From: a virus
Lineage: Duplodnaviria > Heunggongvirae > Uroviricota > Caudoviricetes
Length of the DNA stretch: 64,000 nt
Virus record (IMG/VR): IMGVR_UViG_2724678985_000012
Strand: one strand, 5' to 3'
The notes beneath the pieces were generated by a model, which was given only the letters and a program-made list of their open reading frames with translations, ran no database searches and was not told the origin of the DNA. Both the position numbers and the translations under genes were made by a program. Positions 3,332 through 34,376 of this stretch are shown one piece after another (position 1 is the stretch's first letter; every line of letters starts with the position of its first letter).

Positions 3332-4692
3332 GTCTGGTTAATTGGGAGGAGCACCGCGCCCGCTTTATAGCGTTGCGTGAAGAAAAAGGGATCACTGTAA
3401 AGGAATACTGTGAGGAGCATGGCCTTAGCTTCAATACAGCCAGAAAGCATCTCAATATGAAAAAAAATGAGGTGCGGTCGCAGGTAAAGACAACAAAAAA
3501 AAGCACCAAATCACCTGAAAAAAAACGGGCGGGAAGAGCAACAAAAAAGCTGGAAGAGGGTGCAGAAAAAACAAAATTTACAGAAATTGACAATTCGCAG
3601 GGCGCAGGTTCTTTCCGAAGTATGCCGAGAAAGAAAACTTCGGATCATGAAAATAATGCAAATAATAACAATGAGATAAAAGAATCTGTCAGGAGATCAT
3701 TGCGCGAAAAAATGGCGAAAATGATCCCCGAAGAAGATAAAAGCGCCCCAAAAATTGAGGGATCTTCAGCAATGATCCCTGGCGGTGCTGTGCAACGTGC
3801 CACATTGCCCACTACGAATGTGGCTCGCGACATGATGAAGAACGGCGCAGAAGAACACCTGCGGTTAGCAATTCAAATGGCGCAAGAGCGCGCACTTCAG
3901 TATCAAAGCATTGTTGATCAGGAGGCCGAACGTCTACAGGCGGAAATAGACGCCTTGGGCGATAAAGAGCCAGAAGGAATGCACCCTGGGCAGCGCCTTC
4001 TCGGTCTAATCAGTGACGCGGCCTACTACATGAATGATTTTATCAGTAGGTTGGCAGCTATATATCAGTCCGAACAAAAGCTGCGACAGGGGGATGAAAA
4101 GCTTCGTCAGAGCGCTCGCCAGCAAGCATTCAAAGAGGCTGAGGCCAGAGAAAAACTCGAATTAGCACGCCTACAGGCCGAACAGCGTGGCAAAGAGATT
4201 GAATATCGCATTGGCGCTGACGCACGCGCTGCCAGAGTTATCGCCGCCGCTATACGTATGCGTGAGCGCGAGGAACTGGATGATATCGGTGTTGCTGAAT
4301 ACATCGAGCGCCAGGGGGTCAGCGTCCCGGCTATCCTCGCGGCGCGCGCGGCGAAAGCTATCACTCTTCTCGAACCACCTGTTTCTGACGTCAATGATGT
4401 TGATGATGAACAGCTGGACAAAGAGGCAAGGGAGTTTGCAACGCTTCAGGCTAACCATCCGCAATGGCTGGCAGAGCGCCGGGCGGATGTGGCAACCATT
4501 GTTGAAGAATTGGGGTGCGGAGATTACGACCGCAATGGCGAGCGTAAAGCTGGAGAATTCGAGGCCAACGACGAAGAGCTGGATATTGACCCTTCGGCAA
4601 CGGCTGAAATTTACGGTGATTATGATGCATCTGATGCAGGGTATGACGCCGGAGATGATGATATCGCGATAGAACCGCCGGAGGATGATTAA
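3328..4692 (+). CDS. pacA: PacA-like terminase small subunit
   Basis: 454 aa, coupled to downstream PacB; acidic C-terminus; contains GATC-hexamer cluster. Confidence 0.65.
   Translation: MSLVNWEEHRARFIALREEKGITVKEYCEEHGLSFNTARKHLNMKKNEVRSQVKTTKKSTKSPEKKRAGRATKKLEEGAEKTKFTEIDNSQGAGSFRSMPRKKTSDHENNANNNNEIKESVRRSLREKMAKMIPEEDKSAPKIEGSSAMIPGGAVQRATLPTTNVARDMMKNGAEEHLRLAIQMAQERALQYQSIVDQEAERLQAEIDALGDKEPEGMHPGQRLLGLISDAAYYMNDFISRLAAIYQSEQKLRQGDEKLRQSARQQAFKEAEAREKLELARLQAEQRGKEIEYRIGADARAARVIAAAIRMREREELDDIGVAEYIERQGVSVPAILAARAAKAITLLEPPVSDVNDVDDEQLDKEAREFATLQANHPQWLAERRADVATIVEELGCGDYDRNGERKAGEFEANDEELDIDPSATAEIYGDYDASDAGYDAGDDDIAIEPPEDD
3641..3780. other. pac-like packaging site candidate: clustered GATC hexamers in two opposed groups
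   Basis: GATC at 3644, 3696, 3723, 3761, 3774; GATCAT elements on one side, TGATCC/GATCT on the other, as in the P1 pac site inside pacA. Confidence 0.5.
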
Positions 4693-6200
4693 TGGCTGGC
4701 GGGCGCAAGATTAAATGCGTCACCAGCGATCCACGCTGGCGCGATATGGTAATCAAATACCGCTACAACTTTACCCAGGCTGTTGTCGATATTTTTGGGA
4801 TGTTCCCCTCCCACCAGCAGCAGCAGATCATTCAGTCAGTGCAGGAAACGGGGAGTAGGACGACCGTCACGTCCGGACACGGAACGGGGAAGTCGTCCCT
4901 TACCGCGATGTTGCTGTTGATTTTTATGATCCTGTTCCCCGATGCCCGTGTCATCATTGTTGCTAACAAGATAGGCCAGGTAAAAACAGGCGTATTCAAA
5001 TACGTTAAACAGTATTGGGCGAATGCAGTTAAGCGTCATGGGTGGTTGCAGACCTATTTTGTCCTCTCTGACACCATGTTTTATGAGCGCTCCCGTAAGG
5101 GGATTTGGGAAGTTCTCTGCAAAGGTTATCGACTCGGCAACGAAGAAGCGCTGGCGGGGGAACACGCGGCACATTTGCTTCTAATTCTGGACGAAGCATC
5201 TGGTATATCTGATAAGGCGATCGGCGTAATGACCGGTGCTCTTACTGAAGAAGATAACCGGATGTTGATGCTATCCCAGCCAACAAGGCCAAGTGGTTAT
5301 TTCTACGATTCGCACCATTCTCAAGCAAAAACCCCAGACAACCCGAAAGGGATCTGGACAGCAATTGTTCTTAACTCGGAAGAATCACCGTTCGTCACAC
5401 CACAATTCATCAAGCAGAAGCTTCTGGAATATGGCGGGCGCGATTCTATTGAGTACATGGTCAAGGTGCTTGGTCAGTTCCCACGAGAAATTAACGGCTA
5501 TTTGCTTGGTCGTGATGAATGCGATCGCGCTGCTCGCCGCAAGGTGTTGTTGGAGAAAAACTGGGGATGGGTGGCAACGGCTGACGTTGGTAATGGGCGA
5601 GATAAGTCGGTCCTCAACATCTGCAAAGTATCTGGTCACAGGGATAAGCGGCGCGTTGTTAACTTTAAGGTAATGGAGATGCCTGGCACTATGGACCCAT
5701 TGGCCTTTGCTGACTTCATATATAACGAATGTACGCCGGAAAAATACCCGAATATAACAATCGCGGTTGATGCTGATGGTTTTGGTTCTGATACGTGTGC
5801 GCAGTTGGTGCGTCGTGGTGCGAACCCGGTACGTATTCGGTGGGGAAAACCCATGTTTGCGAACAAAGACAGGGAGCGATTTGTTAATCAGCGTGCCTAC
5901 GCAAATATTATGGCGCGAGATGCCATAAAGTCAGGGCGTATGCGGATAGACAGTGACCCTAAAACGGCAGAGCAAGCGTCAAAAATCCCCTTTTTACTGA
6001 ATGAAGAAGGGAAAATGGCGATGATGCGCAAAGAGCACATGCGGCAAAAGCTAAACATCAAATCGCCTGACCGATGGGATACCTACTGCTTCACTATGCT
6101 GGTGGACTATGTGCCTGCTAATGAAGATATTGGTGCCGAAATGGCAACTTTCCGAGATCAGGTTCTGGCGGATATCGAAATGCCGGATCTGGATATATAA
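4692..6200 (+). CDS. pacB: PacB-like terminase large subunit
   Basis: 502 aa; Walker A SGHGTGKS; terminase-like architecture; start overlaps pacA stop. Confidence 0.8.
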   Translation: MAGGRKIKCVTSDPRWRDMVIKYRYNFTQAVVDIFGMFPSHQQQQIIQSVQETGSRTTVTSGHGTGKSSLTAMLLLIFMILFPDARVIIVANKIGQVKTGVFKYVKQYWANAVKRHGWLQTYFVLSDTMFYERSRKGIWEVLCKGYRLGNEEALAGEHAAHLLLILDEASGISDKAIGVMTGALTEEDNRMLMLSQPTRPSGYFYDSHHSQAKTPDNPKGIWTAIVLNSEESPFVTPQFIKQKLLEYGGRDSIEYMVKVLGQFPREINGYLLGRDECDRAARRKVLLEKNWGWVATADVGNGRDKSVLNICKVSGHRDKRRVVNFKVMEMPGTMDPLAFADFIYNECTPEKYPNITIAVDADGFGSDTCAQLVRRGANPVRIRWGKPMFANKDRERFVNQRAYANIMARDAIKSGRMRIDSDPKTAEQASKIPFLLNEEGKMAMMRKEHMRQKLNIKSPDRWDTYCFTMLVDYVPANEDIGAEMATFRDQVLADIEMPDLDI

Positions 6201-6224
6201 AGCCCCGCGATGCGGGGCCGGTTG
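6201..6224. terminator. Bidirectional stem-loop between convergent pacB and repressor genes
   Basis: GCCCCGC-GAT-GCGGGGC hairpin with flanking A/T-rich runs. Confidence 0.45.
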
Positions 6225-6227
6225 TGA

Positions 6228-7265
6228 TTACCAGAGCTTCGCGGCGTACTGCGTTTGGGGGAATGTGTATCCGTAACGTTCTTCGATTGCTTTGCCGTAT
6301 TTTTTACGAGCTTCATTCAGTTTAATGCCGGTCAGGTCGTCTCCAGAGGCCATCATTACGTCTAACAATTCCAGATCCATTTTATCCAGCCTTGCCATTG
6401 CTTCACGTGATGTACGTATCTTACGTTCAATGATATGGCGAATAGCCGGATCGGCATCCTCCAGCATCTTAGCGGATTTCTGCTTAAGGCTTTCATTGCG
6501 AATATCGATGTTCCTTAAGATGTACGACTTCGCAACGTAGCTTGGCTGGTGTTTTTCCAGGTCACGAACACGATATAAGTTAAAATCGCCGAGAAGGCTG
6601 CAAGGTACCGATTCGACGCCAGAATAAATTGTAATGCTCCGGCGTTCACCAACATTATTGACAACGGGGATCGTTGTCTTCGGTAGTCTTGCGAAAACCA
6701 ATGCGCCATGTGCGCCAACTCTAAAGCGAGAAAGGGCATTGCTGCCTTCGATGTTTGTTGTCAGCACAACATCTGTATATGCCTCTTTACGCGCCCGGTA
6801 GATCTCGCCTTCAGGCTCAGCTTCAAAGAAGCGCTGTTCTTCTTCAAGAGCACCTACGATTTGAGAAAAAACCCTATTTTTCAGGCTTTTCTTTATGATT
6901 TTGTCGTATTTTTTTAGCAATTGTTCACGTGTAAATGTACGTGTTGTTGTAGCGCTTTGCACAACGACATGCGTGCTTTGATTGGTGTCCTCAATGATGA
7001 ATGGGATCGGAGAATATACAGACTCAACAATGTTCGACGCTTTGCCGTCGGCATCGCGGCACATGTCAACGAAGGCTTTCCATTCAGCAAGACATTTTTC
7101 AGCTTCTTCTAATATGTTTTGGTCATGCGTTAATGCAACATGGCGGAATTCCTCGCCAGCATAACTGGTATCATGGAAAACAGAGTTTGCGACCACCAGC
7201 TCTTTCCACCGTTCAGCGGTTTGCAGGAACCGTTTGTACTCTTTCTCGATCGACTTCTTACTCAT
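6228..7265 (-). CDS. Putative immunity repressor (C1-like by position and operator context)
   Basis: 345 aa between pacB and lox/cre, where P1 carries c1; operator-like motif 15 bp upstream of its start. Sequence identity to C1 not verified. Confidence 0.4.
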   Translation of the reverse strand: MSKKSIEKEYKRFLQTAERWKELVVANSVFHDTSYAGEEFRHVALTHDQNILEEAEKCLAEWKAFVDMCRDADGKASNIVESVYSPIPFIIEDTNQSTHVVVQSATTTRTFTREQLLKKYDKIIKKSLKNRVFSQIVGALEEEQRFFEAEPEGEIYRARKEAYTDVVLTTNIEGSNALSRFRVGAHGALVFARLPKTTIPVVNNVGERRSITIYSGVESVPCSLLGDFNLYRVRDLEKHQPSYVAKSYILRNIDIRNESLKQKSAKMLEDADPAIRHIIERKIRTSREAMARLDKMDLELLDVMMASGDDLTGIKLNEARKKYGKAIEERYGYTFPQTQYAAKLW

Positions 7266-7279
7266 TATTCCTACTCGAT

Positions 7280-7294
7280 TTAGTTTTCTAACAT
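7280..7294 (+). promoter_or_regulatory. C1-type operator-like site (TTAGTTTTCTAACAT)
   Basis: Exact copy of the dispersed motif; second inverted copy with one mismatch at 7364-7378. Confidence 0.5.
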
Positions 7295-7474
7295 AAAATT
7301 ACTATGACAAATTTATGTCGAATAACAGAGTGAGTAAAGGATCGAACTGTGATTTTTTGTCATCAATTTTAGAAAACCAACCGTAGAAACCACACTTCGC
7401 AAATTAAAGACCATGAAGGCAACGTGTTACTGGTCATCATCAATCTATGATGGATTTAAAAAAATCGGCATTTT

Positions 7475-23975: not shown

Positions 23976-24554
23976 ATGCAGAAACAGAGCTATTGGGAGA
24001 AACAGAGACAAAAAGCCATGCAAAAATTGGCTGACCCGGCCTGGCGAGAGGAACAAAGGGCAAAGCGCCTTCAACAAGCTCAACGCCAGCAGCAGCGAGC
24101 GAGAGAAAAAGCCGCATCGCCTGAATATCGGCAAAAAAAAATTGAAAAAGCAAAGCAATATGACCAGCGGAGAAAAGAGAAAGCTGTATCCGCTCCGTCC
24201 AAAAAAACACGCACGTCACGCGGCCTGAAGGGCAGATCACTCACAGCCGATGAACGCCGGATACAGACCGCTATCGGTACTCTCCCCTGCATTGCCTGCC
24301 ATATTCACGGGAAACATAGCCCAGTGGTATCCCTGCACCATATCTTCGGGAGAACGGCAGAGAACGCACATAAATATGTCCTCCCTTTGTGTAAATGGCA
24401 CCACCAGTACGCAGCGCCAGCCGAGGTCCGAGAACAATATCCCTGGCTGGTCCCTGTTCATGCTGATGGAAAAATAGGCGGAAAAGCAGATTTCATACGG
24501 CACAATGCCGATGAAATGGCGTTGTATCAGATGGCGATTGAATTGATAAATTAG
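23976..24554 (+). CDS. ref: Ref recombination enhancement function, HNH endonuclease
   Basis: 192 aa; C-terminal GLKGR..ERRI...LPCIAC..HG...VSLHH..GRTA....LPLC.WHHQ.AAPAEVRE.YPWLVPVHADG matches P1 Ref. Confidence 0.85.
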   Translation: MQKQSYWEKQRQKAMQKLADPAWREEQRAKRLQQAQRQQQRAREKAASPEYRQKKIEKAKQYDQRRKEKAVSAPSKKTRTSRGLKGRSLTADERRIQTAIGTLPCIACHIHGKHSPVVSLHHIFGRTAENAHKYVLPLCKWHHQYAAPAEVREQYPWLVPVHADGKIGGKADFIRHNADEMALYQMAIELIN

Positions 24555-24565
24555 TTTTCTAACAT
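24551..24565 (+). promoter_or_regulatory. C1-type operator-like site
   Basis: TTAGTTTTCTAACAT exact; degenerate copy upstream of ref at 23896-23911. Confidence 0.5.
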
Positions 24566-24885
24566 TTTAAGTTGAATTGTGAATTTCCCCGATGTACATT
24601 CACTACCGATTGGTACACCGGTCAACTTTTTGAGACAAACTGTTTAGTTTTTCGTATTATTGCCGCCGCCATACCTATGGCGGTGCAATATAGGTGGCTG
24701 AAAAGCCCCCGTTGACTCACGGTGTTCCAGCCTTTATTGCGCCGCCACCAGACCGTGGAACAGTCGATGGCGGCTCCGAAAGCAAGGAGTCACTACACTA
24801 TGAACAACTACAGTCTTTTCCCATCACTCGTCGTCCACCACTCACGCGATAATCTGCATTCTTTACTCGCGCCGGGGGTGTCAAA

Positions 24886-25053
24886 ATGACTGTTCGCTAC
24901 CTCAACTTTCAAATCAAGAACATTACTGGCGGTTGCTATGACTGGTTTGTCACTCTCGGAAAAGAAGTGATTACTGGTAAACTGGATGAAGTGAAAGCTA
25001 AAGCAATGGCCTACGCCTGCAAGCAAACCAGGAAGAAATCCGCCAAAGCATAA
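24886..25053 (+). CDS. Small ORF (55 aa) in immI-like leader
   Basis: Hand-translated MTVRYLNFQIKNITGGCYDWFVTLGKEVITGKLDEVKAKAMAYACKQTRKKSAKA; followed by hairpins and a strong terminator. Confidence 0.25.
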   Translation: MTVRYLNFQIKNITGGCYDWFVTLGKEVITGKLDEVKAKAMAYACKQTRKKSAKA

Positions 25054-25156
25054 AATACTGACTGTTGCGCCCTGGCATTATCGTGGGGTATATTTCTACG
25101 GCACCTTAGAAAAACGGGTGCCGGGATTGGAACCCCGGATAATGTCAAAGGCGACA

Positions 25157-25180
25157 CAGACGCCGAAAGCGTCTTTTTTT
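25157..25180 (+). terminator. Rho-independent terminator
   Basis: GACGC-cgaaa-GCGTC followed by T7 run. Confidence 0.75.
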
Positions 25181-25365
25181 GTGTCACGCCATCGCACAGC
25201 CATACGTAGCGTTTAGCTCAGAGATCAATGGTAGTGCTGGCTGGGCTGCCGAAAGGCAGGCCGGTTCCCTTTGACGCCGGTAGTTCCAACCCAGTCAGTG
25301 CTACCGCCATTGAGATTGGAACCTCACGCGGTAGCTCCTTAACTTAGTCAAAGGAGGCTGCCAAT

Positions 25366-25581
25366 ATGGCTACTATCCCTACCCCAACTCATTCTGAATT
25401 TATCTGGCGTTTCTATTCCTGCCAAAAACACCTGTATATCTGCGTCATGGCTGCTACCGAAGCAGAGGCGCGCTCATACCTTCCCGAAGAACCCTGCATT
25501 TTTGCTGCTCGCTTCACTCTTGATGCGATGGAGATCCTCAATTACTGGAATCTGCCGATGAACTGCGTGGAGGTGCACTGA
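25366..25581 (+). CDS. Icd-like (host cell division inhibitor) small protein
   Basis: 71 aa starting MATIPTPTHSEF with EAEAR...FAARF pattern recalled for Icd-like proteins; AGGAGG RBS. Confidence 0.5.
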   Translation: MATIPTPTHSEFIWRFYSCQKHLYICVMAATEAEARSYLPEEPCIFAARFTLDAMEILNYWNLPMNCVEVH

Positions 25582-26522
25582 TGAATCTGTCCATCTCTCA
25601 AAAAGCGACAATGACCAGTATTGAGATCGCGGAACTGGTGGGAAGTCGTCACTCTGATGTTAAACGCAGCATCGAAAGACTTGTTGCTAAAGGAGTTATC
25701 CAACATACGCCATTGGCTACAGTTGAGAATAATCAATCACTTAGCCCTAATAAATACACAAAAGCCTATTTCTTCGAAGGCGAACAAGGCAAGCGCGATA
25801 GTATTGTCGTCGTCGCGCAGCTCTCTCCCGAATTCACCGCCCGGCTGGTGGACCGCTGGCGCGAATTGGAGAATGCCCGGGTACAGTTAAAATCAAAAGC
25901 CGAAATTCTGGCTGAAATGGCGCAAATGCATCTTGAACATGAACGCCGGATCAACGCCGTAAATGCCCAGGTAGCCGAGGTATCGGCACAAGTGTCCAGG
26001 GTCGCTGAAACCGTTGAGCAAATCAAGAAAGGCAATATGCCGGAAGGCTACATTGGCTACCGCCAGCTGGCGGCAAAATGCGGCCTGACCGAAGCCAAAT
26101 GTCGCAACCTGGTCAACGCTTACCGGATTCCCACCGATACGCATGAGTTTTTAACTCCCGATGGTTTGCTTGCGCGACGCTCCATTGTGGCCCTGGCCCC
26201 CTTCCGGAAAGCCTTTAAGCAGGTGATGTCGGAGGCAGAACCACGCAATAAACGCTGGTATCATCCAAAGATGGGGATGTTTCAGGCAATCAACCATCCT
26301 GTGCCTGAAAGCCCAAAGGATAATCTGTCACTACATACCGCCAGAGAGAAGATCAGGACTGGATACGCAACAGTGTGTCGTCGTTCTTCCTGGCCTGAAG
26401 GTATATGGGTGTGGCCCGAAGGTGGATCACGAAAGCACTGGCGCACTATCCGGGATGGGAAAATCCATGCTATTGATTTAGCTCCAGAGGATGTTGTTGC
26501 TACGGACTGGATTGTTAGTTAA
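25581..26522 (+). CDS. Rha-family phage regulatory protein (possible antirepressor)
   Basis: 313 aa; N-terminal MTSIEIAELVGSRHSDVKRSIERL typical of Rha domain; coupled to icd-like ORF. Confidence 0.6.
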   Translation: MNLSISQKATMTSIEIAELVGSRHSDVKRSIERLVAKGVIQHTPLATVENNQSLSPNKYTKAYFFEGEQGKRDSIVVVAQLSPEFTARLVDRWRELENARVQLKSKAEILAEMAQMHLEHERRINAVNAQVAEVSAQVSRVAETVEQIKKGNMPEGYIGYRQLAAKCGLTEAKCRNLVNAYRIPTDTHEFLTPDGLLARRSIVALAPFRKAFKQVMSEAEPRNKRWYHPKMGMFQAINHPVPESPKDNLSLHTAREKIRTGYATVCRRSSWPEGIWVWPEGGSRKHWRTIRDGKIHAIDLAPEDVVATDWIVS

Positions 26523-26649
26523 TAGCTTTTGCCCCGGTCAGGCCGGGGCATGATACCAATAAATTGCATAACATAGTGTAGATTAGTAAAATAGCATACT
26601 CACACAGCTTTATAATTATTTGTTTTTTTACGTTAAAGGATGAATAACT

Positions 26650-27000
26650 TTGGCTACTAAAATTAACTTAGAAAATCCTCGGACAGGCGAGTCCATCTCA
26701 GGCTTTTATGGATTCTCCTGGACTACGTTCTTTTTTGGTGCCTTCCCGGCTTTGTTCAGGAAAGACTTTATAACTTTCATCGGGGTGTTCGTTGTGATGC
26801 TAATCCTGGCATTCCTCACTGCAGGAATTGGTCCTTGGGTAGCTTCACTTGTCTGGGCATTTATATACAATAAATATTTCACCGTAAATAAGATAAAACA
26901 AGGATTTGTATTTGCTGGCTCTCACACAGAAAATGAGTTAGCCGCCAGCAAACTTGGATTGGTCTTAAACCAAAACAACTGCAAAACTATTACCGAGTAA
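26650..27000 (+). CDS. Small inner-membrane protein (two TM segments)
   Basis: 116 aa, TTG start with AGGA RBS. Confidence 0.35.
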   Translation: MATKINLENPRTGESISGFYGFSWTTFFFGAFPALFRKDFITFIGVFVVMLILAFLTAGIGPWVASLVWAFIYNKYFTVNKIKQGFVFAGSHTENELAASKLGLVLNQNNCKTITE

Positions 27001-27002
27001 AA

Positions 27003-27037
27003 TTCAAAAAGCAGGCTTAGTCGTTAAGCCTGCTTTA
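27003..27037 (-). terminator. Rho-independent terminator for the minus-strand secreted-protein gene
   Basis: AAAGCAGGCTTAG-tcgt-TAAGCCTGCTTT; T-run on minus strand. Confidence 0.6.
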
Positions 27038-27041
27038 TCAA

Positions 27042-27962
27042 TTACGAATCTTGCTGGCAATTCAGAAACATAAATGCCCGCTTGTCCGTCAAATCAGTGA
27101 CATAATATTCTCTCGTTCCTGTAGGTTTTATTCTACGGGCATATACAAACTTATGTACCGGTTGTTTATCTCCATAACTCACTTCTGTCCTAAACTCATC
27201 AACCACGCTACCATCTTTTTCAGTTTCCTTTCTCACTAGCTGATTTTCTAATACAGGCTTTGATTCGTCCATGCCACTAAAAGCATCCTGACCTGTGCTG
27301 TTGCCTCGGTTTCCGCGTGGTAAATCCCATGAAAAATAAGTGCCATAGTCAGTAATCACACGATCCCATGTTCCGGAATCCCCCATATAGTTAGAACGCT
27401 CCCCCTTGTAAGTTACAGCCACCTTACAGGCATACGTTTCACCATTATTTTTTTTATCATGTCCAGCCATGCTCGCTGTAGTTGCAGGAGTTGCAGGGGA
27501 ATTATGAATAGATGCGCTTACATCATCTTGCGTTAATTCCTCAACTGGAGCAAATTCATATATGGGTGTGCCGAGGCTATTTAAATATAACTTATATCTA
27601 ACCCTAAGCGCACTTCCATCAGAGAATTCATACGTTCCCAGACATTGGAGCTTATTTTTTTCTCTTATCTCATTGATCTGATTATAAGCATCAATTACAG
27701 AGATTGCTTCCTGATCGTCCTTCAGCAGTTCATTATAATCATCGATTAACATCTGTCTGGTTTTAGGGGCATTGCAGTCAATTTTGCTAAAATCATAAGC
27801 AAAGGCAAATGTGGGAACAGAGAGAGCAACAACAGTAGCAAGTATTGTTGAGGAACTTCTTTTTCCATTTTTTATAAAAAACATTTCATTAACTCCATAC
27901 TTTACCATCTTAGCCGCGAGCGCGGTCCCTAAAACCCTTAACTTCACTGCACAGACCTTCAT
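27042..27962 (-). CDS. Secreted protein of unknown function
   Basis: 306-aa ORF; probable start at 27884 (MFFIKNGKRSS...) giving a signal peptide; AT-rich. Confidence 0.45.
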   Translation of the reverse strand: MKVCAVKLRVLGTALAAKMVKYGVNEMFFIKNGKRSSSTILATVVALSVPTFAFAYDFSKIDCNAPKTRQMLIDDYNELLKDDQEAISVIDAYNQINEIREKNKLQCLGTYEFSDGSALRVRYKLYLNSLGTPIYEFAPVEELTQDDVSASIHNSPATPATTASMAGHDKKNNGETYACKVAVTYKGERSNYMGDSGTWDRVITDYGTYFSWDLPRGNRGNSTGQDAFSGMDESKPVLENQLVRKETEKDGSVVDEFRTEVSYGDKQPVHKFVYARRIKPTGTREYYVTDLTDKRAFMFLNCQQDS

Positions 27963-28175
27963 GCAATCAAAATGACTTTTATGTTATAAAAATAATCAGC
28001 CAAATCAACATGATTTAGGCCAAATTTCGGTCAAAAAATAAAATCCACAAAAAGTGGTTGACACTATTTTGGAAATCACAAACTGCACATAATCCATCGC
28101 GCTAACGGCTCCCGTTGAAGGTTCTTTTGACGATTAACTTTCAGCCGAAGCGCGGTAGGGAGTCATAACGCCAAA

Positions 28176-28202
28176 GCAGGCCGCCATGTGCGGCCTTTTT
28201 TT
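28176..28202 (+). terminator. Leader hairpin-terminator upstream of gene 28230
   Basis: AGGCCGC-catgt-GCGGCCT followed by T7; no plus-strand gene immediately upstream. Confidence 0.5.
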
Positions 28203-28229
28203 GTATCCGTCATCCGTGGAGGAAGGACA

Positions 28230-28883
28230 ATGGAAAAGATCGCAATATTCAGCCTGACCACCAGCAAGCCTCAAATGCTCACTGCAATACTGAAAGACGG
28301 TGCTCTCATTATTAACGAAGTAAAACCCCTTCCTGCGTCAGCATTGGAGCAAAAGCAAAAAATTCCTCCAGCTATAGCAGCCCTGCGGAAAAGCAAATTT
28401 AAGGTTCTAGTAGACGAAATTACGCCAACGATCTCCGCTGGCACCGGAGCAAGCCAGGTGACTCTCAAGACCCGTCATGCCGATGGTAGAGCAGCAATCA
28501 TCGTTGGGATGGAAAGATACAGAGAGTTAAAACTCCAGAAACTATTATCCCTGCCGCAAAATAACAAAGGTGCTTTCGAAATCCCCGACTCTATCGTTGA
28601 TACCGAATACAACGGTAACGGAGAAGAAGTCTACAGGGTGAACTGGCAGGATATCAGGCCGGAGCATATTCTGATGATCCTGTGTTGCTACGCGACCGTA
28701 TACCACAACGTTGCCAGTGCGGATTACGTAGAGCAGATGACCGGTACAGTCGAGAAAGAGCAAAAAACAGGCATACTCGCTTCGTTCCTTTCCATTATTG
28801 GGCATGAAAAAGTTAAAGCAGGCACCTCCCAGCCAAAGTCACTGGCTGGGAAAGAAGTTGATGAAGATACCGTGATACTTTGA
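28230..28883 (+). CDS. Hypothetical protein
   Basis: 218 aa from MEKIAIF with GGAGGAAGG RBS (ORF track starts at 28188). Confidence 0.45.
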   Translation: MEKIAIFSLTTSKPQMLTAILKDGALIINEVKPLPASALEQKQKIPPAIAALRKSKFKVLVDEITPTISAGTGASQVTLKTRHADGRAAIIVGMERYRELKLQKLLSLPQNNKGAFEIPDSIVDTEYNGNGEEVYRVNWQDIRPEHILMILCCYATVYHNVASADYVEQMTGTVEKEQKTGILASFLSIIGHEKVKAGTSQPKSLAGKEVDEDTVIL

Positions 28884-29018
28884 TCACATTAGTAGCTTTG
28901 TTAACTCCCTCAATACCAGGTAGAAGAGTAACAAAAATATTGACGCCAGTATTTGAGTGGACAATGAAGCGTTCATAAACAGATCAATTAGCATTAATAA
29001 TTCGAAGATAACATCCAT
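28884..29018 (-). CDS. Small hydrophobic peptide (44 aa), membrane toxin/holin-like candidate
   Basis: Hand-translated MDVIFELLMLIDLFMNASLSTQILASIFLLLFYLVLRELTKLLM; GGAG RBS 9 nt upstream; below ORF-track cutoff. Confidence 0.3.
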   Translation of the reverse strand: MDVIFELLMLIDLFMNASLSTQILASIFLLLFYLVLRELTKLLM

Positions 29019-29211
29019 GTCATTCACTCCGCTTAATTTTTAATCTAATGCCAGCAAATGAAGCTGGCCCCCGCATAAAGATTAATGAAAGTCACTTGTC
29101 ACCAGTGAGGGGATTTATGAACCACATCCCCCTGAACTGGTGGCCTGTCTGTTTCTCGCATTTCACACCCTGCATACAGTTTCCACCAGGTTATGACTGA
29201 GAGGCTTTGTT

Positions 29212-29541
29212 ATGGGCTATAGCAGACTCGACGATAGGTATATTGAAGACGATATTTTTCGTGCGCTGTTTCACCAGGAAATGATTAAGCGGGTATCGGA
29301 GTATCACTCTGATAATTTCCAGTACACGATAAAGATTGATGAAGTATATCGTTCAGACCTTGCAGCCTACAGGGCGTATGGCAATGCAGATTTGCGCTGG
29401 GTATTCCGGGTGCTGGTGGGCCATGAGTCAGAAATGGAAGAAATGCCCGCCGGGACCACGTTAACTCTTCCTGATGTGGCATGGCTGAGGAACAAGATCC
29501 GTGATTACGCGAGCGCGGAACCGGAGATAGAAAATGCCTGA
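29212..29541 (+). CDS. Hypothetical protein
   Basis: 109-aa ORF coupled to downstream gene. Confidence 0.4.
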   Translation: MGYSRLDDRYIEDDIFRALFHQEMIKRVSEYHSDNFQYTIKIDEVYRSDLAAYRAYGNADLRWVFRVLVGHESEMEEMPAGTTLTLPDVAWLRNKIRDYASAEPEIENA

Positions 29542-30724
29542 TTTCCTGAAAAACCAGGACGGGCGCTATATCACTGACGGTCTGTCCTCTAAGGACTTCA
29601 CGCGTTTATTCGACCTTATCAGGAAAGAACAAACCCGTAAGCGCCGACAAGCTCACCGGACGCTGACGCCAGGCAGACTTAGGAACAAATCCGCCGAAGA
29701 TATTCTCAAGTTAGGGAAGAAAAAAGGCGGCACGTTCTTTACGCGAGACGATCTGAAAGGCTTCGAAAAGCTACGGAGTAAAACGCGCGAAAAATATGAC
29801 AGCAAGACGGCTGGCATCACATACGCCCAGCTGGTGGCATCCAGCCAGGCTATCGATATTAAGCGTGCAAATAACGCCGTGGATGACGGATCTGGTATCA
29901 AAAGAGCTACACCCGTATCTCTTCGCCACAATGTGATTAATATCCGCGTAGAAGCATCGGATATATCCGTCCACCAGCACCATATCGTCCGGATACGCTT
30001 TGAAGAATGGGATCAGATGGTTGATGATATCGCAGAAGACGATAAATCAGCTCTCAAAATCACTAAATCACTGTGCGCCGGGCGAGTGTCTTTCGATTGT
30101 GACTGTGGTCGTCATCAATACTGGTATCGTTACATCGCCACTGCGGGTAACTTTGCCCTGGCACCGCCAAAAGAATACGCCTATCCAAAAGTTCGCAACC
30201 CGAAGCTGCAAGGCGTCGCCTGTAAACACGTGATCCACTCAATGACGCGGTTACAGTCCGCCAGTTGGCAAATGAGTATTGCTCGTGCGCTACAAAAGGC
30301 TGCAACGCAAATTGCATTTGGTGACGATCGCCGCCGTACAACCAAACACTTCTCAAAAGAAGACGAGAAGGAGTTTAATCGCAATCGTAGCAGTAAAACG
30401 AACGTTGACGCTGCCAAGCGAGAATGGAGGCTCTATCAGAAGCGCCAGGCCGCTTTAAGCACAAAACTGGCAAAGGACAACGGCAAGATTGACAAGCTAC
30501 GTGACCAACTGACCAAGGCCAGAAAGTTGTCAGACGCACAGAAAAAACGGGCGGCAGCAAAAGAAGCGGCGTTGCAACGTGAGAAACAGAAAAACAAGGA
30601 GCTTCAGCAACGCCTGGCCGATCAGTTCGCACTGAAGAAGCAGGCGTTCATTGATGCGCTTGTCATGGCTGGAACACCACCAGCACAAGCTGAAAAAATG
30701 TTCATGGAGTACATAAAAAATTAA
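29534..30724 (+). CDS. Hypothetical protein with SWIM-like zinc finger and basic coiled-coil tail
   Basis: 396 aa; FDCDCGRH...CKHVIH fits CxCxnCxH; C-terminal Lys/Gln/Ala-rich coiled coil. Confidence 0.45.
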   Translation: MPDFLKNQDGRYITDGLSSKDFTRLFDLIRKEQTRKRRQAHRTLTPGRLRNKSAEDILKLGKKKGGTFFTRDDLKGFEKLRSKTREKYDSKTAGITYAQLVASSQAIDIKRANNAVDDGSGIKRATPVSLRHNVINIRVEASDISVHQHHIVRIRFEEWDQMVDDIAEDDKSALKITKSLCAGRVSFDCDCGRHQYWYRYIATAGNFALAPPKEYAYPKVRNPKLQGVACKHVIHSMTRLQSASWQMSIARALQKAATQIAFGDDRRRTTKHFSKEDEKEFNRNRSSKTNVDAAKREWRLYQKRQAALSTKLAKDNGKIDKLRDQLTKARKLSDAQKKRAAAKEAALQREKQKNKELQQRLADQFALKKQAFIDALVMAGTPPAQAEKMFMEYIKN

Positions 30725-30735
30725 CAAAGGTGGGT

Positions 30736-31470
30736 TTATCCCACCTTTTTATTAGCATCGCATTTAATTTTTTCAAGTGAATCAGAAAGCTTTGAGAGAA
30801 GCTCCTCAAGTGTTTCCCTGTCATTTGTATCACCCGAACGAAAAGATGAGTTTTTCACGGCGGTAAAAAATTCATAAAAATCATCCACCGAATTTAAGCT
30901 CTCACCTTTCTCTCTATATAATTTAATAATATGAATGATATCGCTATCCACACATTCAATCTGTTTCCTAATTTCTTTAAGCCGTTTTTCTAATGATTCA
31001 AGTTCTTCTTCTTCTTGTTCAATATACTTTTTAACGTCTCTCTGCTTCTTAATGGCTTTCTTAATATCACTGTTAATTGTCCTTATTTGTTCTTTTTTAT
31101 TTGCAATTTCATCTATTTTTCTTAATTTAGCATATAATGTGCTTGTCACCAAAGAAATTAACAGGGTTAACAGTGGCGCTAATATTGACGCCACAACACC
31201 ATAAATAAAAGGCAAAACAAAATGAGCTACGAACGATGGTAAAAAAAGATTCCCCAATAATGGGATCTTTTCCCCGACAAACACTATAGATAATGTATAC
31301 ATAACATCATCTTTTGACTTCAGTAATATAAATATGTCTCGCCAATTAGAAATTAAAAACGAAATAAAAATGTAGGCAAAAACCTTATTAAACAACTTAT
31401 CTTTTACAGCATCTTCTAACAGATTTTGGGTAGAGGAGTTTTCCTTTTCTATTGATGAATCAGCGCTCAT
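30736..31470 (-). CDS. Membrane protein with cytoplasmic coiled-coil domain (candidate effector)
   Basis: 244 aa; three to four N-terminal TM segments, Glu/Lys-rich coiled coil; very AT-rich; directly downstream of an HTH antitoxin-like gene. Confidence 0.5.
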   Translation of the reverse strand: MSADSSIEKENSSTQNLLEDAVKDKLFNKVFAYIFISFLISNWRDIFILLKSKDDVMYTLSIVFVGEKIPLLGNLFLPSFVAHFVLPFIYGVVASILAPLLTLLISLVTSTLYAKLRKIDEIANKKEQIRTINSDIKKAIKKQRDVKKYIEQEEEELESLEKRLKEIRKQIECVDSDIIHIIKLYREKGESLNSVDDFYEFFTAVKNSSFRSGDTNDRETLEELLSKLSDSLEKIKCDANKKVG

Positions 31471-31530
31471 ATAATTACCAAATATTTAAACATTGATTTT
31501 ATGTAAAAGCGGTCATCCAGACCGCAAAAC

Positions 31531-31890
31531 TTAAACACCAACCAGACTTTCCAGTGGAATACCAAACTGGGCATGTAAACGACGAATCATAGGTAACGTC
31601 AAATTTCGTGTCCCATTAAGCACTTCGTAAACACGGTTTGACTTACCAATTGCCGGTTCCAGATCCTTCACGGTCAGTCCTTGCTGTTCCATACGGAATT
31701 TAATGGCCTCAATAGGTGATGGTGGCTCAATTGGGTAATGTTTTTTCTCGTACTCCTCAATGAGAAGACACATAACCTCAAAGAAATCGCCTTCCGGTGT
31801 GTTCATTTCCGGTTCGTTATCGAACATCGGTTCGACCGCACGCAGTGCGGCCTCATAATCTTGTTCTGTACGGATAGGTTTAATGTTCAT
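31531..31890 (-). CDS. HigA-like HTH protein (E. coli K-12 HigA architecture), no adjacent RelE-type toxin
   Basis: 119 aa; N-terminal domain plus C-terminal HTH GLTVKDLEPAIGKSNRVYEVLNGTRNLTLPMIRRLHAQFGI as recalled for K-12 HigA. Confidence 0.55.
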   Translation of the reverse strand: MNIKPIRTEQDYEAALRAVEPMFDNEPEMNTPEGDFFEVMCLLIEEYEKKHYPIEPPSPIEAIKFRMEQQGLTVKDLEPAIGKSNRVYEVLNGTRNLTLPMIRRLHAQFGIPLESLVGV

Positions 31891-31899
31891 TAATTACAA

Positions 31900-31930
31900 A
31901 GGAAAGCCCACTTGCTAAGTGGGCTTTTTG
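31900..31930. terminator. Palindromic terminator separating higBA from the downstream two-gene unit
   Basis: AAAGCCCACTT-gcta-AGTGGGCTTT with T/A-rich flanks. Confidence 0.6.
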
Positions 31931-31946
31931 TATGTGTTTTACTATA

Positions 31947-32285
31947 TCAGGCTGCTTTTTTATTCAGGTTCCGCTGAGAAATAAATTTTTCAGCAGTATT
32001 GATACGACTTAACTCTTCCTGAACGCGCATATCATTTTCGACTTCCCACAGTTCTACTGCGGTCTGAAGATTAATCCAAAAATCTACAGAAGTATCGAAT
32101 GCTTTTGCCAGGCGATATGCCATATCCATCGTTAGCTTACGATTATTATTAACAAGAGCACTTACGGTGTTACGATGAACATGAAGTATTTCTGCTAACT
32201 CGTTGATCTTCAGCTCTAACGGCTCCAGGTATTCGTACAGCAGGATATCACCTACGGTCGTCGGTTTTCTGGTTGCCTGTTTCAT
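31947..32285 (-). CDS. higA: HigA antitoxin (HTH, HigA family)
   Basis: 112 aa; VGDILLYEYLEPL...LA..L.V.RNTVSALVN..R.LT.DMAYRLAKAF.TS..FW.NLQ matches HigA/VapI family. Confidence 0.75.
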   Translation of the reverse strand: MKQATRKPTTVGDILLYEYLEPLELKINELAEILHVHRNTVSALVNNNRKLTMDMAYRLAKAFDTSVDFWINLQTAVELWEVENDMRVQEELSRINTAEKFISQRNLNKKAA

Positions 32286-32355
32286 TTTTTGCCCTTACTA
32301 GCGTGCGTATTAAGTGGACTCTGGTCAGAACCCGGTCCGTAACCGGGTATCTGTT

Positions 32356-32658
32356 TTAGTATTTGTGAGGGTCGAGATACAAGTCCTCGGCCTTTCCGTT
32401 AACCCACTTAAAAATTAACCTATATTGCTTATTCACCCTTACTGATGAATAGCCATTTAGCTTCCCTGACAGTTCCTCATACCGATTACCTGGTGGTGAT
32501 CTTAAATCCTTACAGGTAGTTGCGGCATTGATAATGTCCAACTTCCGTGACAATGTCATATGAATATCAGGAGGTATCTTTCTATGTGGTGTTGAAAATT
32601 CAAAAAAATCATCAAGCCACGCATCCCTGAAATCCTTTATGTTAATTTTTTTGGTCAT
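32356..32658 (-). CDS. higB: HigB toxin (RelE/ParE superfamily, plasmid killer)
   Basis: 100 aa upstream of higA; C-terminal YRLIFKWVNGKAEDLYLDPH typical of HigB. Confidence 0.7.
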   Translation of the reverse strand: MTKKINIKDFRDAWLDDFFEFSTPHRKIPPDIHMTLSRKLDIINAATTCKDLRSPPGNRYEELSGKLNGYSSVRVNKQYRLIFKWVNGKAEDLYLDPHKY

Positions 32659-32808
32659 TAGTCATTTGATCCTCCGTGATGATTACCGAATGCCATAACT
32701 ATAGCGCACCGTTGCACTGTGCGCAAGTGCATTTTATGAATTCCCCCTCCTTCATCCAAAATCACAATCTCCCGAAAATCTTCCTTTCGATACCTGACAG
32801 ATCGACCT

Positions 32809-33612
32809 TTGAGGATGCTTATGGGCCGTTTTGACGAATGGTTTGCTGACGATGCAAACCTGGCAAGTAAGGAGTCAGAACATGACAGCACGCAGAGAGA
32901 AACGCCAGCGCCGATTGAAGCGAATGCAGGAGGCGCGCCGGAACATGGCAATACCGGTTCGGATTCATTCAGCATTCTGGAAGAGCAACCCGCCGCCAAA
33001 GCTGATAGCCATGATAATTTTGCTGATAGCAACGGTGGCCTTACTCCGGATGCTGGCGAATCAGATATAGCCATACTTCCATCTTCCCTGGCTGGCAGAG
33101 AACCGACTCCACAGTTAAAAGCACGCTATAACGGGCATAAAGCCTTTAACGACCAAATCCGCGCAGACTGGATGCTGATTATTGAATCCAGCCCAGACGC
33201 GTTTCAGGCTCTCTTATATCGACCAGATGTTGGCACATATGGGGTAGTCAGCGACGAAACAGGAGAAGAGTCATTCACTGAACTGGATAACAACCAACGC
33301 GAACTGACTTACCAGGAACCTGAAATCGTTTATGTGCTGGATAACCCTGACGGGCGTGACTCTTTCCATGCGATTGACGCAGACGGTGAGCAGGATGGCT
33401 TAACCGATGATGTTCTGATTCTGCGTATTGCAGCAAATAACGTCCCCGTCGGCTCAATTCTTGAATGGAATGAAGAGATGGTAAACGGCGTAGCCCGCCG
33501 CTGGTGGTACGTGCACCGTATTTTTAGCTACGGCACACAGCATGTTGGTTCGCTTTACTACTGCATACCTGCCAGAAATTTTGATACGACTCAAAACGGA
33601 GTGATCGAATGA
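32809..33612 (+). CDS. Acidic hypothetical protein
   Basis: 267 aa; first of four coupled plus-strand genes ending in a spike-like gene. Confidence 0.4.
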   Translation: MRMLMGRFDEWFADDANLASKESEHDSTQRETPAPIEANAGGAPEHGNTGSDSFSILEEQPAAKADSHDNFADSNGGLTPDAGESDIAILPSSLAGREPTPQLKARYNGHKAFNDQIRADWMLIIESSPDAFQALLYRPDVGTYGVVSDETGEESFTELDNNQRELTYQEPEIVYVLDNPDGRDSFHAIDADGEQDGLTDDVLILRIAANNVPVGSILEWNEEMVNGVARRWWYVHRIFSYGTQHVGSLYYCIPARNFDTTQNGVIE

Positions 33613-34376
33613 CTTCAAATAAAACCCTCCTGGCACGAACAGGTGAATGGCAAACCTCACGCACAGGAAAATTCCAGACCACGGGCTTTGAAAACGTGGA
33701 TAACGCGTTTGCTACGCTAATCAGCAATATCTTTTCTGATATCTTACTGGTGGCCCCCGCGCCGGAAGAAAAACGCTTTGCGTCATTCCTGAATCGTCCA
33801 CCAGCAGAGCGTGTCTATGTGGCCCGTTTCGACAATGCGATCGAGTTTCTTAAAGCAGTTCGTCGCGCAAATGCCGGGCAAGGGAGAAAACCTGAAAACC
33901 AGAACATTAACCGGGATGCTCTCCCCCTGGTCAATATCTCACGCACTATGGATATCAATTATATCAACGATGATCAGCAGATTGACCGCAAAAAAGTAGC
34001 CAGTTTTTGCGAACCGGATACCGGAATGCCTTTAGCAGAACTGGAATACACCCAGGCCATTCTGACGTATGACGTTACGTTAATGGCAACTGATAAAGCG
34101 ACCATGAGTCTGATGTGTAATTCGCTGGGCGCACGGCTTCGCCTGATGACAGGTACACAATTTGAAGCAACCACTCACCTTGTTCGTGTCCCGGTCCCGC
34201 TGATTTGCTCGATACAGGATGCCAAAGAAGTCGGCTTTACGGATGTTTCAGCACCAATTGGAGAAGAGCGTATTTATGCCACACAAGCGCCGATAAGTGT
34301 GATTGCAGACGTGATCACAGCATGGGAGTTGGACGCAAAACGTATTATTACCGAAACCTCGATATCTATGGGGTGA
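33609..34376 (+). CDS. Hypothetical protein (putative baseplate/tail assembly)
   Basis: 255 aa, coupled. Confidence 0.4.
   Translation: MTSNKTLLARTGEWQTSRTGKFQTTGFENVDNAFATLISNIFSDILLVAPAPEEKRFASFLNRPPAERVYVARFDNAIEFLKAVRRANAGQGRKPENQNINRDALPLVNISRTMDINYINDDQQIDRKKVASFCEPDTGMPLAELEYTQAILTYDVTLMATDKATMSLMCNSLGARLRLMTGTQFEATTHLVRVPVPLICSIQDAKEVGFTDVSAPIGEERIYATQAPISVIADVITAWELDAKRIITETSISMG

Follow-up and report, generated by a model that had tools for sequence, protein, structure and literature searches.

Between positions 26523 and 30724 of a 64-kb stretch of viral DNA (IMG/VR record IMGVR_UViG_2724678985_000012; the whole stretch is hereafter called the window), a phage-plasmid of the P1 family carries a 4202-bp region that is very probably composite, consisting of the core genes mat, 26, and 25 and a small variable slot between ant and mat, and not a single accessory island. 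The region is the junction between the immI-type operon (C4 RNA, icd, and a Rha-type ant gene) and the first late morphogenesis genes. A preliminary description of this DNA had presented it as an AT-rich island of uncharacterized genes standing in place of the P1 restriction–modification genes. Over half of this proposed defense island consists of core genes for virion assembly, which any homology search will find, and for this reason the region should not go forward as a novel system. Its genes are already annotated in phage D6, and the conservation of gp25 and gp26 as well as the variability of the simB slot have already been published. The small sim-like slot with its swappable secreted proteins is a reasonable place to look for superinfection exclusion among phage-plasmids of this family, vehicles of resistance genes in Enterobacteriaceae, and the conserved terminator in the mat leader together with a D6-type late-promoter box are small additions to P1-family gene regulation.

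A megablast search with positions 24000–33700 as query recovered Escherichia phage D6 (NC_050154 / MF356679) at 95.4% identity over 94% of the query and 51 PLSDB plasmids that cover at least 80% of it, the top PLSDB match being a plasmid of E. coli O45:H2 with 96.9% identity. On the basis of these matches, we assign the source element to the D6-type members of the P1 family of phage-plasmids. The D6 record labels the counterparts of the six open reading frames (ORFs) in the region as follows: orf80, hypothetical; orf79, "similar to P1 simB"; orf78, "maturation control protein, similar to P1 mat"; orf77, hypothetical; orf75, "baseplate wedge subunit, similar to P1 gene 26"; and orf74, "tail protein, similar to P1 gene 25." We refer to the simB-like ORF as the secreted-protein gene. 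All six ORFs are present where the preliminary description had placed them (table 1), but its statement that no family is matched fails for four of them, which are homologous to SimB, Mat, gp26, and gp25.

In local tblastn searches, the mat product is 33% identical to P1 Mat over residues 2–208 (E 8e-36), the gene 26 product is 41% identical to P1 gp26 (E 8e-19), and the gene 25 product is 56% identical to P1 gp25 over 359 aa (E 8e-124). These proteins belong to phrog_1837 (E 2e-94), phrog_1269 ("baseplate wedge subunit," E 2e-36), and phrog_1722 ("tail protein," E 5e-197), respectively. The gene 26 product also matches the solved "Gp26" chain (PDB 9ay5_S/9vzk) with E 1e-16; sequence matches of Mat, gp25, and the SimB-like protein to the PDB were dismissed as noise, leaving gp26 as the only one matched. 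P1 gp26 was found by cryo-electron microscopy to be a six-fold plug that joins the wedges to the central hub of the baseplate (PMC12810830). Genes 26 and 25 overlap by 8 nt (29534–29541), in agreement with the coupled pair noted earlier at 29212..30724, and gene 25 is predicted to be translationally coupled to gene 26. By synteny, the pair is the head of the conserved 26-25-7-24-6-5 tail operon: these genes are contiguous in P1, whereas in the window a 2-kb insert with a toxin–antitoxin pair and orf73 parts 25 from 7, and mapping of P1 proteins onto the window shows that the order 26-25-[insert]-7-24-6-5-hrdC-dmt is kept as in P1. For P1, mat, 25, and 26 are listed as "known essential genes" and simA, simB, and simC as non-essential (PMC10695390), and the 21 genes described as "extremely conserved" across P1-like phage-plasmids include those for gp7, gp25, and gp26 (PMC9603915).

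Conservation and base composition separate the same two parts. In 116 related plasmids, at least 80% of the mat-26-25 block is covered, versus 56 plasmids with the cassette formed by orf80 and the secreted-protein gene, so that the synteny check suggested in the preliminary description supports a variable position for the ant–mat cassette and not for the block. The GC content of the whole region is 0.445, which is the 14th percentile of same-length windows. Positions 26523–28229 have a GC content of 0.401 (3rd percentile), whereas positions 28230–30724, from mat to 25, have 0.475 (53rd percentile), which equals the backbone. The claim of a composition unlike the backbone is thus borne out by the first part and by orf77 but by neither the whole region nor the block; the AT-rich segment is limited to about 26.56–27.9 kb, with a GC content of about 0.40, plus orf77. 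The core genes span 2495 of the 4202 bp (59%), and over this length we find what the preliminary description had itself named as the outcome opposed to its reading, namely conserved morphogenetic genes with no composition anomaly.

Given these results, it is extremely improbable that the whole of 26523–30724 is a horizontally acquired defense or exclusion island of novel genes that replaced the P1 restriction–modification genes, and for 28230–30724 homology and conservation rule this out. Such an island would fit the lack of any tblastn match of P1 Res or of the mod region in the 64-kb window, the AT-rich and variable nature of part of the region, and the lack of a Pfam match for any of the six proteins. 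However, mat, 26, and 25 are P1 homologs with backbone GC kept in 116 relatives, gp26 is a solved virion protein, and mat, which was said to have been replaced along with res and mod, is itself one of the supposed replacements. In P1, res and mod follow mat, and the counterpart position in the window holds orf77 alone. Searches of the six proteins against Pfam (E 0.01, then E 10), NCBIfam, and PADLOC returned nothing usable. In PADLOC-DB 2.0, five of the six had no match at E up to 0.01 and gp25 had a single marginal one (E 0.009) in its coiled-coil region, with no stretch passing alone. One observation weighs against counting the entire core as structural: the P1 virion model contains gp26 but lacks gp25, and neither Mat nor gp25 is among its modeled proteins (PMC12810830). 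A "structural" status of gp25 is not supported by that model, and gp25 may be an assembly factor or an unresolved tail component. Its homologs form 299 clusters of proteins of about 400 aa, encoded on contigs of about 80–100 kb and named phage tail or tail stability protein; precomputed annotation assigns a Pfam domain to 0 of the 120 listed among these 299, and gp25 itself has no PDB sequence match.

The variable slot contains a replaceable AT-rich cassette of about 1.3 kb (26565–27905) comprising two convergent genes, orf80 and the secreted-protein gene, that share a hairpin terminator. This hairpin, located between the two genes, is probably a bidirectional terminator, and a second, GC-rich hairpin just past the ant/rha stop codon marks the left edge of the slot. 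Alignment of the window with D6 and comparison with relatives place the breakpoints at 26562, at the hairpin after ant, and at about 27905, roughly 18 codons into the secreted-protein ORF. When the interval from ant to mat was used as a query, the window/D6 cassette was found in about 52 of 120 plasmids, and the others matched the flanks only. We inspected three alternative versions of the slot. The first combines a pmgF-like gene with two unrelated proteins, of 130 and 207 aa, that have signal peptides; the second has the same arrangement with the second protein annotated at 165 aa; and the third encodes one secreted protein of 291 aa, the C-terminal ~150 residues of which are 76–82% identical to the window protein and the N-domain of which is unrelated. 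All inspected alternative cassettes thus code for signal-peptide proteins, and because the breakpoint at about 27905 falls some 18 codons into the ORF, the alternative secreted-protein genes share a promoter region and a 5' end comprising the first ~18 codons (MK..VKLRVLG.ALAA). The shared segment 27905–27962 is the signal peptide in one alternative and, in the window, would be an N-terminal extension before the second, ribosome-binding-site-preceded start at 27884. Turnover of the slot could proceed by recombination between its conserved flanks, that is, the hairpin after ant and the first ~18 codons with the promoter region of the secreted-protein gene.

That the surroundings of simB vary among D6-like prophages, and that simB is present without simA and simC, has been reported previously, as has the replacement of the vicinity of a simB homolog in a sister plasmid (PMC6799933), and res-mod and simABC are among eight low-GC variable regions of P1-like phage-plasmids (PMC9603915). 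Of the hotspot for defense or exclusion that had been suggested earlier, what stands is the ~1.3-kb ant–mat slot, which is AT-rich, replaceable, and codes for a SimB-related protein; the suggestion does not extend to the mat-26-25 core.

The orf80 product is a small protein with a hydrophobic stretch at residues 34–72 that fits two transmembrane segments, as had been described, and it belongs to phrog_4915 (E 5e-46). Its family includes at least 600 homologous clusters of membrane proteins of about 110 aa from Enterobacterales, Burkholderiales, and others, most of them chromosomal in Proteobacteria. Some of these homologs are named DUF2628 or HrgC by UniRef; orf80 itself is unmatched in Pfam at E up to 10, has no NCBIfam or PADLOC match, and has no P1 homolog by tblastn. 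The secreted protein has the signal peptide that had been noted for the ORF at 27042..27962, a typical one if translation starts at the ATG at 27884 (MFFIKNGKRSSSTILATVVALSVPTFAFA↓YD, cleavage type AFA↓YD), and its PHROG profile alignment also begins at this start. The signal peptide is followed by a SimB-like N-domain, a low-complexity linker, and a conserved C-terminal β-barrel domain. Residues 34–148 of the 306-aa ORF match P1 SimB with E 2.6e-23 in tblastn, and in blastp the protein is 46% identical to all 111 aa of SimB (E 2e-27).

The family of the secreted protein is rare: 5.8 billion sequences yielded 11 clusters, and 1.84 billion yielded 31 representatives. Some members are free-standing SimB-like proteins of about 105–120 aa, and the others carry the C-domain, alone or in a fusion. 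Even among proteins with as little as 26% identity, many residues of the C-domain are invariant, including two cysteines near its ends. Its AlphaFold model is all-β (predicted local distance difference test, pLDDT, 86.5; predicted template modeling score, pTM, 0.82), from which a disulfide-bracketed β-barrel is predicted, and its matches in BFVD are to uncharacterized phage proteins only. In its model, the SimB-like domain has a helix lying against a four-stranded sheet, and nothing in the PDB matches it significantly. A full-length AlphaFold2 model of the secreted protein was set aside in favor of the C-domain-only model; it had a pLDDT of 59.7 and no Foldseek match in the PDB at E 1e-3 or below.

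The homology to SimB, the linkage to the icd/ant immunity operon, and the rapid turnover of the cassette lead us to propose, tentatively, that the cassette proteins, located in the periplasm or inner membrane, could act in superinfection exclusion. They would be prophage-expressed envelope proteins that act like the P1 sim locus, which also adjoins immI, and they would block the entry of related superinfecting phages past adsorption. A simB homolog of a D6-like prophage has been assigned to superinfection exclusion in the literature (PMC6799933). Several observations weigh against this proposal. Homologs of SimA and SimC are absent from the 64-kb window at E 1e-5, and neither was detected in the D6-like pYU39_89 (PMC6799933); in P1 the effector is SimC, and SimB is just a "putative accessory." The cassette proteins match no Pfam, NCBIfam, or PADLOC family, and the homologs of orf80 are so widespread and so often chromosomal that they provide no pointer to a phage-specific role. 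A scan for sigma-70 promoters gave no convincing candidate for either of the two genes, so that their expression in the lysogen is an assumption.

The same proteins might instead be envelope "moron" factors apart from phage exclusion, an alternative that we regard as possible but doubtful: the secreted protein would be a periplasmic inhibitor or a ligand-binding barrel, lysozyme-inhibitor-like or lipid-binding, and orf80 a small membrane protein, and together they would change host envelope physiology or fitness or help the lysis or entry of the element itself. The fold matches are all weak and generic, and SimB, from the superimmunity locus of P1, is the sole protein with specific homology; in addition, linkage to immI is retained, and high turnover of secreted cassettes suits an arms race over housekeeping. 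It is very unlikely that the secreted protein, orf80, and orf77 lack any selected role and are decaying or non-functional filler. Profile searches assigned neither a domain nor a function to them, half of the relatives do without the slot content, and one close relative has the secreted-protein gene broken into two ORFs. Nevertheless, the ORFs are intact in many plasmids at 89–98% DNA identity, the invariant residues and the two cysteines of the C-domain persist down to 26% identity in a confidently predicted fold, and orf80 has hundreds of conserved homologs. Superinfection exclusion, as proposed above, draws on the specific homology to SimB.

Regulatory sequences were compared with those of P1. 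The P1 late-promoter consensus, AAGTGACTT-N4-TAnnnT, has one site in the window. Comparison of the regions upstream of the late operons of the element yielded a box of its own, AAATCACA[AC]-N6 followed by a –10 hexamer. The window matches it exactly five times, just upstream of mat, 7, 23, pmgB, and R and in each case on the coding strand. With at most one mismatch, this box has 10 sites versus 3.96 expected, and none of 100 shuffles reaches 10. The other half of D6 contains three more exact matches, upstream of ddrB, R, and pmgB. D6-type elements therefore appear to use their own late-promoter box distinct from that of P1, in which AAGTGACTT is followed by N4, and this fits with an Lpa that is just 31% identical to P1 Lpa. 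A further candidate with two mismatches is a possible late promoter of 26-25. No match to the P1 C1-operator consensus was found within 3 mismatches.

The only P1-type site points at orf77, a gene for a 44-aa peptide that, as described previously for 28884..29018, is hydrophobic along its whole length. The peptide belongs to phrog_38362 (E 1e-29), and orf77 is probably a real gene because it stays 44 aa long in a variant with a diverged N-terminal half. A relative from Klebsiella lacks orf77, its mat and 26 overlapping, and one relative has a RelE/HigA pair in the mat–26 gap. The box upstream of orf77 is the sole exact P1-type site in the window and D6 positions 1–46000 and is kept in five D6-like loci, one of them with diverged flanks; it may be what is left of the bidirectional LP26/LPpmgL promoter known from P1.

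A more elaborate explanation is that orf77 encodes a toxic membrane peptide under a P1-type late promoter that the divergent Lpa of the element does not use, so that a superinfecting P1-type phage would trigger the gene and abort its own infection. This is consistent with the different box of the late operons of the element and the 31% identity between the Lpa proteins, with the single exact P1-type box kept even where its flanks diverge, and with the constant length of orf77 despite sequence divergence. We consider it highly improbable, given that there is just one promoter-like site, that with at most one mismatch 27 of 100 shuffles also score, that the box may be the LP26/LPpmgL relic from upstream of P1 gene 26, that the specificity of Lpa is itself inferred, and that the peptide could be a lysis or assembly accessory. 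Equally speculative, and improbable as a whole, is a combination in which the ant–mat slot would be a hotspot of interchangeable periplasmic entry-blockers assembled from swappable modules (a SimB-like or helical N-domain plus the rare barrel) and orf77 on its P1-type late promoter would in addition be a tripwire against P1-type competitors.

The mat gene is predicted to be a late gene here as in P1 because an exact element-type late box lies upstream of it and aligns with P1 Pmat/LPmat. Between this promoter and the gene, the terminator that had been reported before 28230 is present as a GC hairpin (stem 28178–28196) followed by T7, directly 5' of the mat ribosome-binding site, and it is probably an attenuator. 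A GC hairpin with a T-run occurs between late promoter and mat ribosome-binding site in three divergent lineages, namely the D6-like window, P1, and the Klebsiella plasmid remnant described below. Because these hairpins share position and not stem sequence, which differs among the three, a conserved attenuator is suggested, and because equivalents occur in P1 and the Klebsiella relative, the leader terminator is best read as a family feature of mat and no sign of foreign origin. An Rfam scan of the mat leader gave no match, and covariation support sought with RNAalifold was discarded since three sequences are too few and too divergent for it to be meaningful. The conserved Mat sequence begins at P1 residue M38, and the annotated 37-aa N-terminal extension of P1 Mat overlaps the leader; since homologs begin at M38, the start codon of P1 mat may have been mis-called.

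Table 1. Features in and around positions 26523–30724; coordinates refer to the window unless another sequence is named.
Feature	Position	Strand	GC	Description and basis
C4-like RNA (two) and isrK-like RNA (one)	24673-24752, 25101-25179, 25224-25311			Rfam matches
Hairpin at left edge of slot	26531..26549	+		GCCCCGG-TCAG-CCGGGGC, GC-rich, just past ant/rha stop codon; read from sequence
orf80	26650..27000	+	0.407	116-aa small membrane protein; TTG start; AAGGA ribosome-binding site
Hairpin between orf80 and secreted-protein gene	27008..27036			12-bp palindrome between convergent genes; terminator scan
Secreted-protein gene	27042..27962	-	0.397	Two-domain protein; 306-aa ORF, likely start ATG 27884 giving 280 aa
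Predicted late promoter of mat	28073..28093	+		AAATCACAA-N6-CATAAT; exact element-type box; aligns with P1 Pmat/LPmat
mat leaders compared	window 28094-28229; P1 stretch 2697-2826; Klebsiella stretch 4357-4485			
Intrinsic-terminator-like hairpin with T7	28178..28205	+		mat leader, directly 5' of GGAGGA ribosome-binding site; terminator scan
mat	28230..28883	+	0.469	Maturation-control gene, 217 aa; core P1-family gene by homology
orf77	28884..29018	-	0.341	44-aa hydrophobic peptide; fills mat–26 gap, tail-to-tail with mat
P1-type late-promoter sequence	29079..29097	-		AAGTGACTT-N4-TAATCT, exact; points at orf77, 52-61 nt upstream of it
Candidate late promoter of 26-25	29160..29180	+		ATTTCACAC-N6-TACAGT; two mismatches to element box
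Gene 26	29212..29541	+	0.485	Baseplate plug protein, 109 aa; homology to P1 gp26
Gene 25	29534..30724	+	0.493	"Tail stability" protein, 396 aa; CxC…CxH motif and C-terminal coiled coil
Insert between genes 25 and 7	30725..32800	-		
orf73	30736-31470			Membrane protein with coiled coil
HigA-like helix-turn-helix gene	31531-31890			119 aa; Pfam HTH_3
higA	31947-32285			
higB	32356-32658			Pfam HigB, E 4e-35
Element-type late boxes, window	28073, 32759, 46030, 54664, 62040	+		Exact matches
Element-type late boxes, other half of D6	27747, 38135, 45511	-		Exact matches

Just outside the region, the insert at 30725–32800, which splits 26-25 from 7-24-6-5, is the strongest AT-rich island, with a GC content of 0.381 (0.2th percentile) and of 0.318 in orf73. 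Gene 7 comes after the insert with its own late promoter (32759). By megablast, no PLSDB plasmid contains the part of the insert at 30725–31285, which takes in the C-terminal half of orf73. The helix-turn-helix (HTH) protein encoded at 31531–31890 matches the first 119 of the 402 positions of the PADLOC model PD-Lambda-2_B (E 7e-43); its gene, an orphan, was rejected as a member of PD-λ-2 because it lacks the peptidase domain and neither an A nor a C component was matched.

A block related to the core also occurs in large non-phage plasmids of Klebsiella, Raoultella, and Salmonella, between arsenic-resistance and lactate-utilization genes, with about 125 records from Klebsiella. In the IncFIB plasmid NZ_OW970446 of Klebsiella pneumoniae, the block (stretch 3706–7430) contains a truncated ref, an HTH/HigB pair, and intact mat (52% identity), 26 (65%), and 25 (61%), with mat overlapping 26, and no further tail genes were found in the 12-kb stretch inspected. 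This mat-26-25 block is probably a phage-plasmid remnant. On the other side of the region, Rfam reports a C4 antisense RNA (77 bits) and an isrK-like small RNA (63 bits) upstream of icd, and a second, sub-threshold C4-like match (40 bits) lies closer to ref. In phage D6, a second icd/ant pair adjoins repL.

Among known elements, phage D6 and the D6-like plasmid prophages such as pYU39_89 are closest, with 95% DNA identity to the window. Phage D6 and the window have the gene order ref, icd, ant, orf80, simB-like, mat, orf77, 26, 25, orf73, HTH, higA, higB, 7 in common. The window differs from D6 in that it lacks the pmgF-like orf81, about 360 bp being gone at 26562–26564 between ant and orf80, and in that the C-terminal half of orf73 (30720–31262) is not alike. 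Among the matches listed, NZ_CP031917 is the sole other plasmid with the shorter ant–orf80 arrangement without the pmgF-like gene, which D6 and most relatives have.

Two further systems resemble individual proteins of the window. The CxC…CxH motif on which the preliminary description had based a SWIM-like zinc finger in the 396-aa protein is indeed present in gp25, where the segment CDCGRHQYWYRY…GVACKHV (window 30071–30274), the same in P1, is the best conserved, and it has the CKH core of the SWIM zinc finger (PF04434). Its arrangement of CDC, a 37-aa spacer, and CKH differs in that 37 residues separate CxC from CxH, and the Pfam SWIM profile remains unmatched even at E up to 10. PD-λ-2 (Vassallo et al. 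2022) is similar in that the HTH protein of the insert matches the N-terminal third of its B component and is found beside a HigB-family toxin in other D6-like plasmids, but in that component a C-terminal peptidase follows a HigA-like HTH, and a third gene is required for the system, whereas the HTH protein of the window has no peptidase domain.

Compared with P1 itself, mat has different neighbors: in P1 it adjoins res/mod, about 19 kb away from 26-25, and in the window it is adjacent to 26, whereas its late promoter and leader hairpin are kept in kind. The cassette differs from the P1 sim locus in that the SimB-like domain is fused to an unrelated β-barrel domain and in that the gene lies downstream of ant in convergent orientation, whereas P1 sim is upstream and divergent. 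It resembles that locus in that the N-domain is homologous to full-length SimB, including the signal peptide and the sequence DFSK(I/V)DCN at the start of the mature protein, and in that the gene is directly beside the icd/ant immunity operon and is, as simABC in P1-like elements, low in GC and variable.

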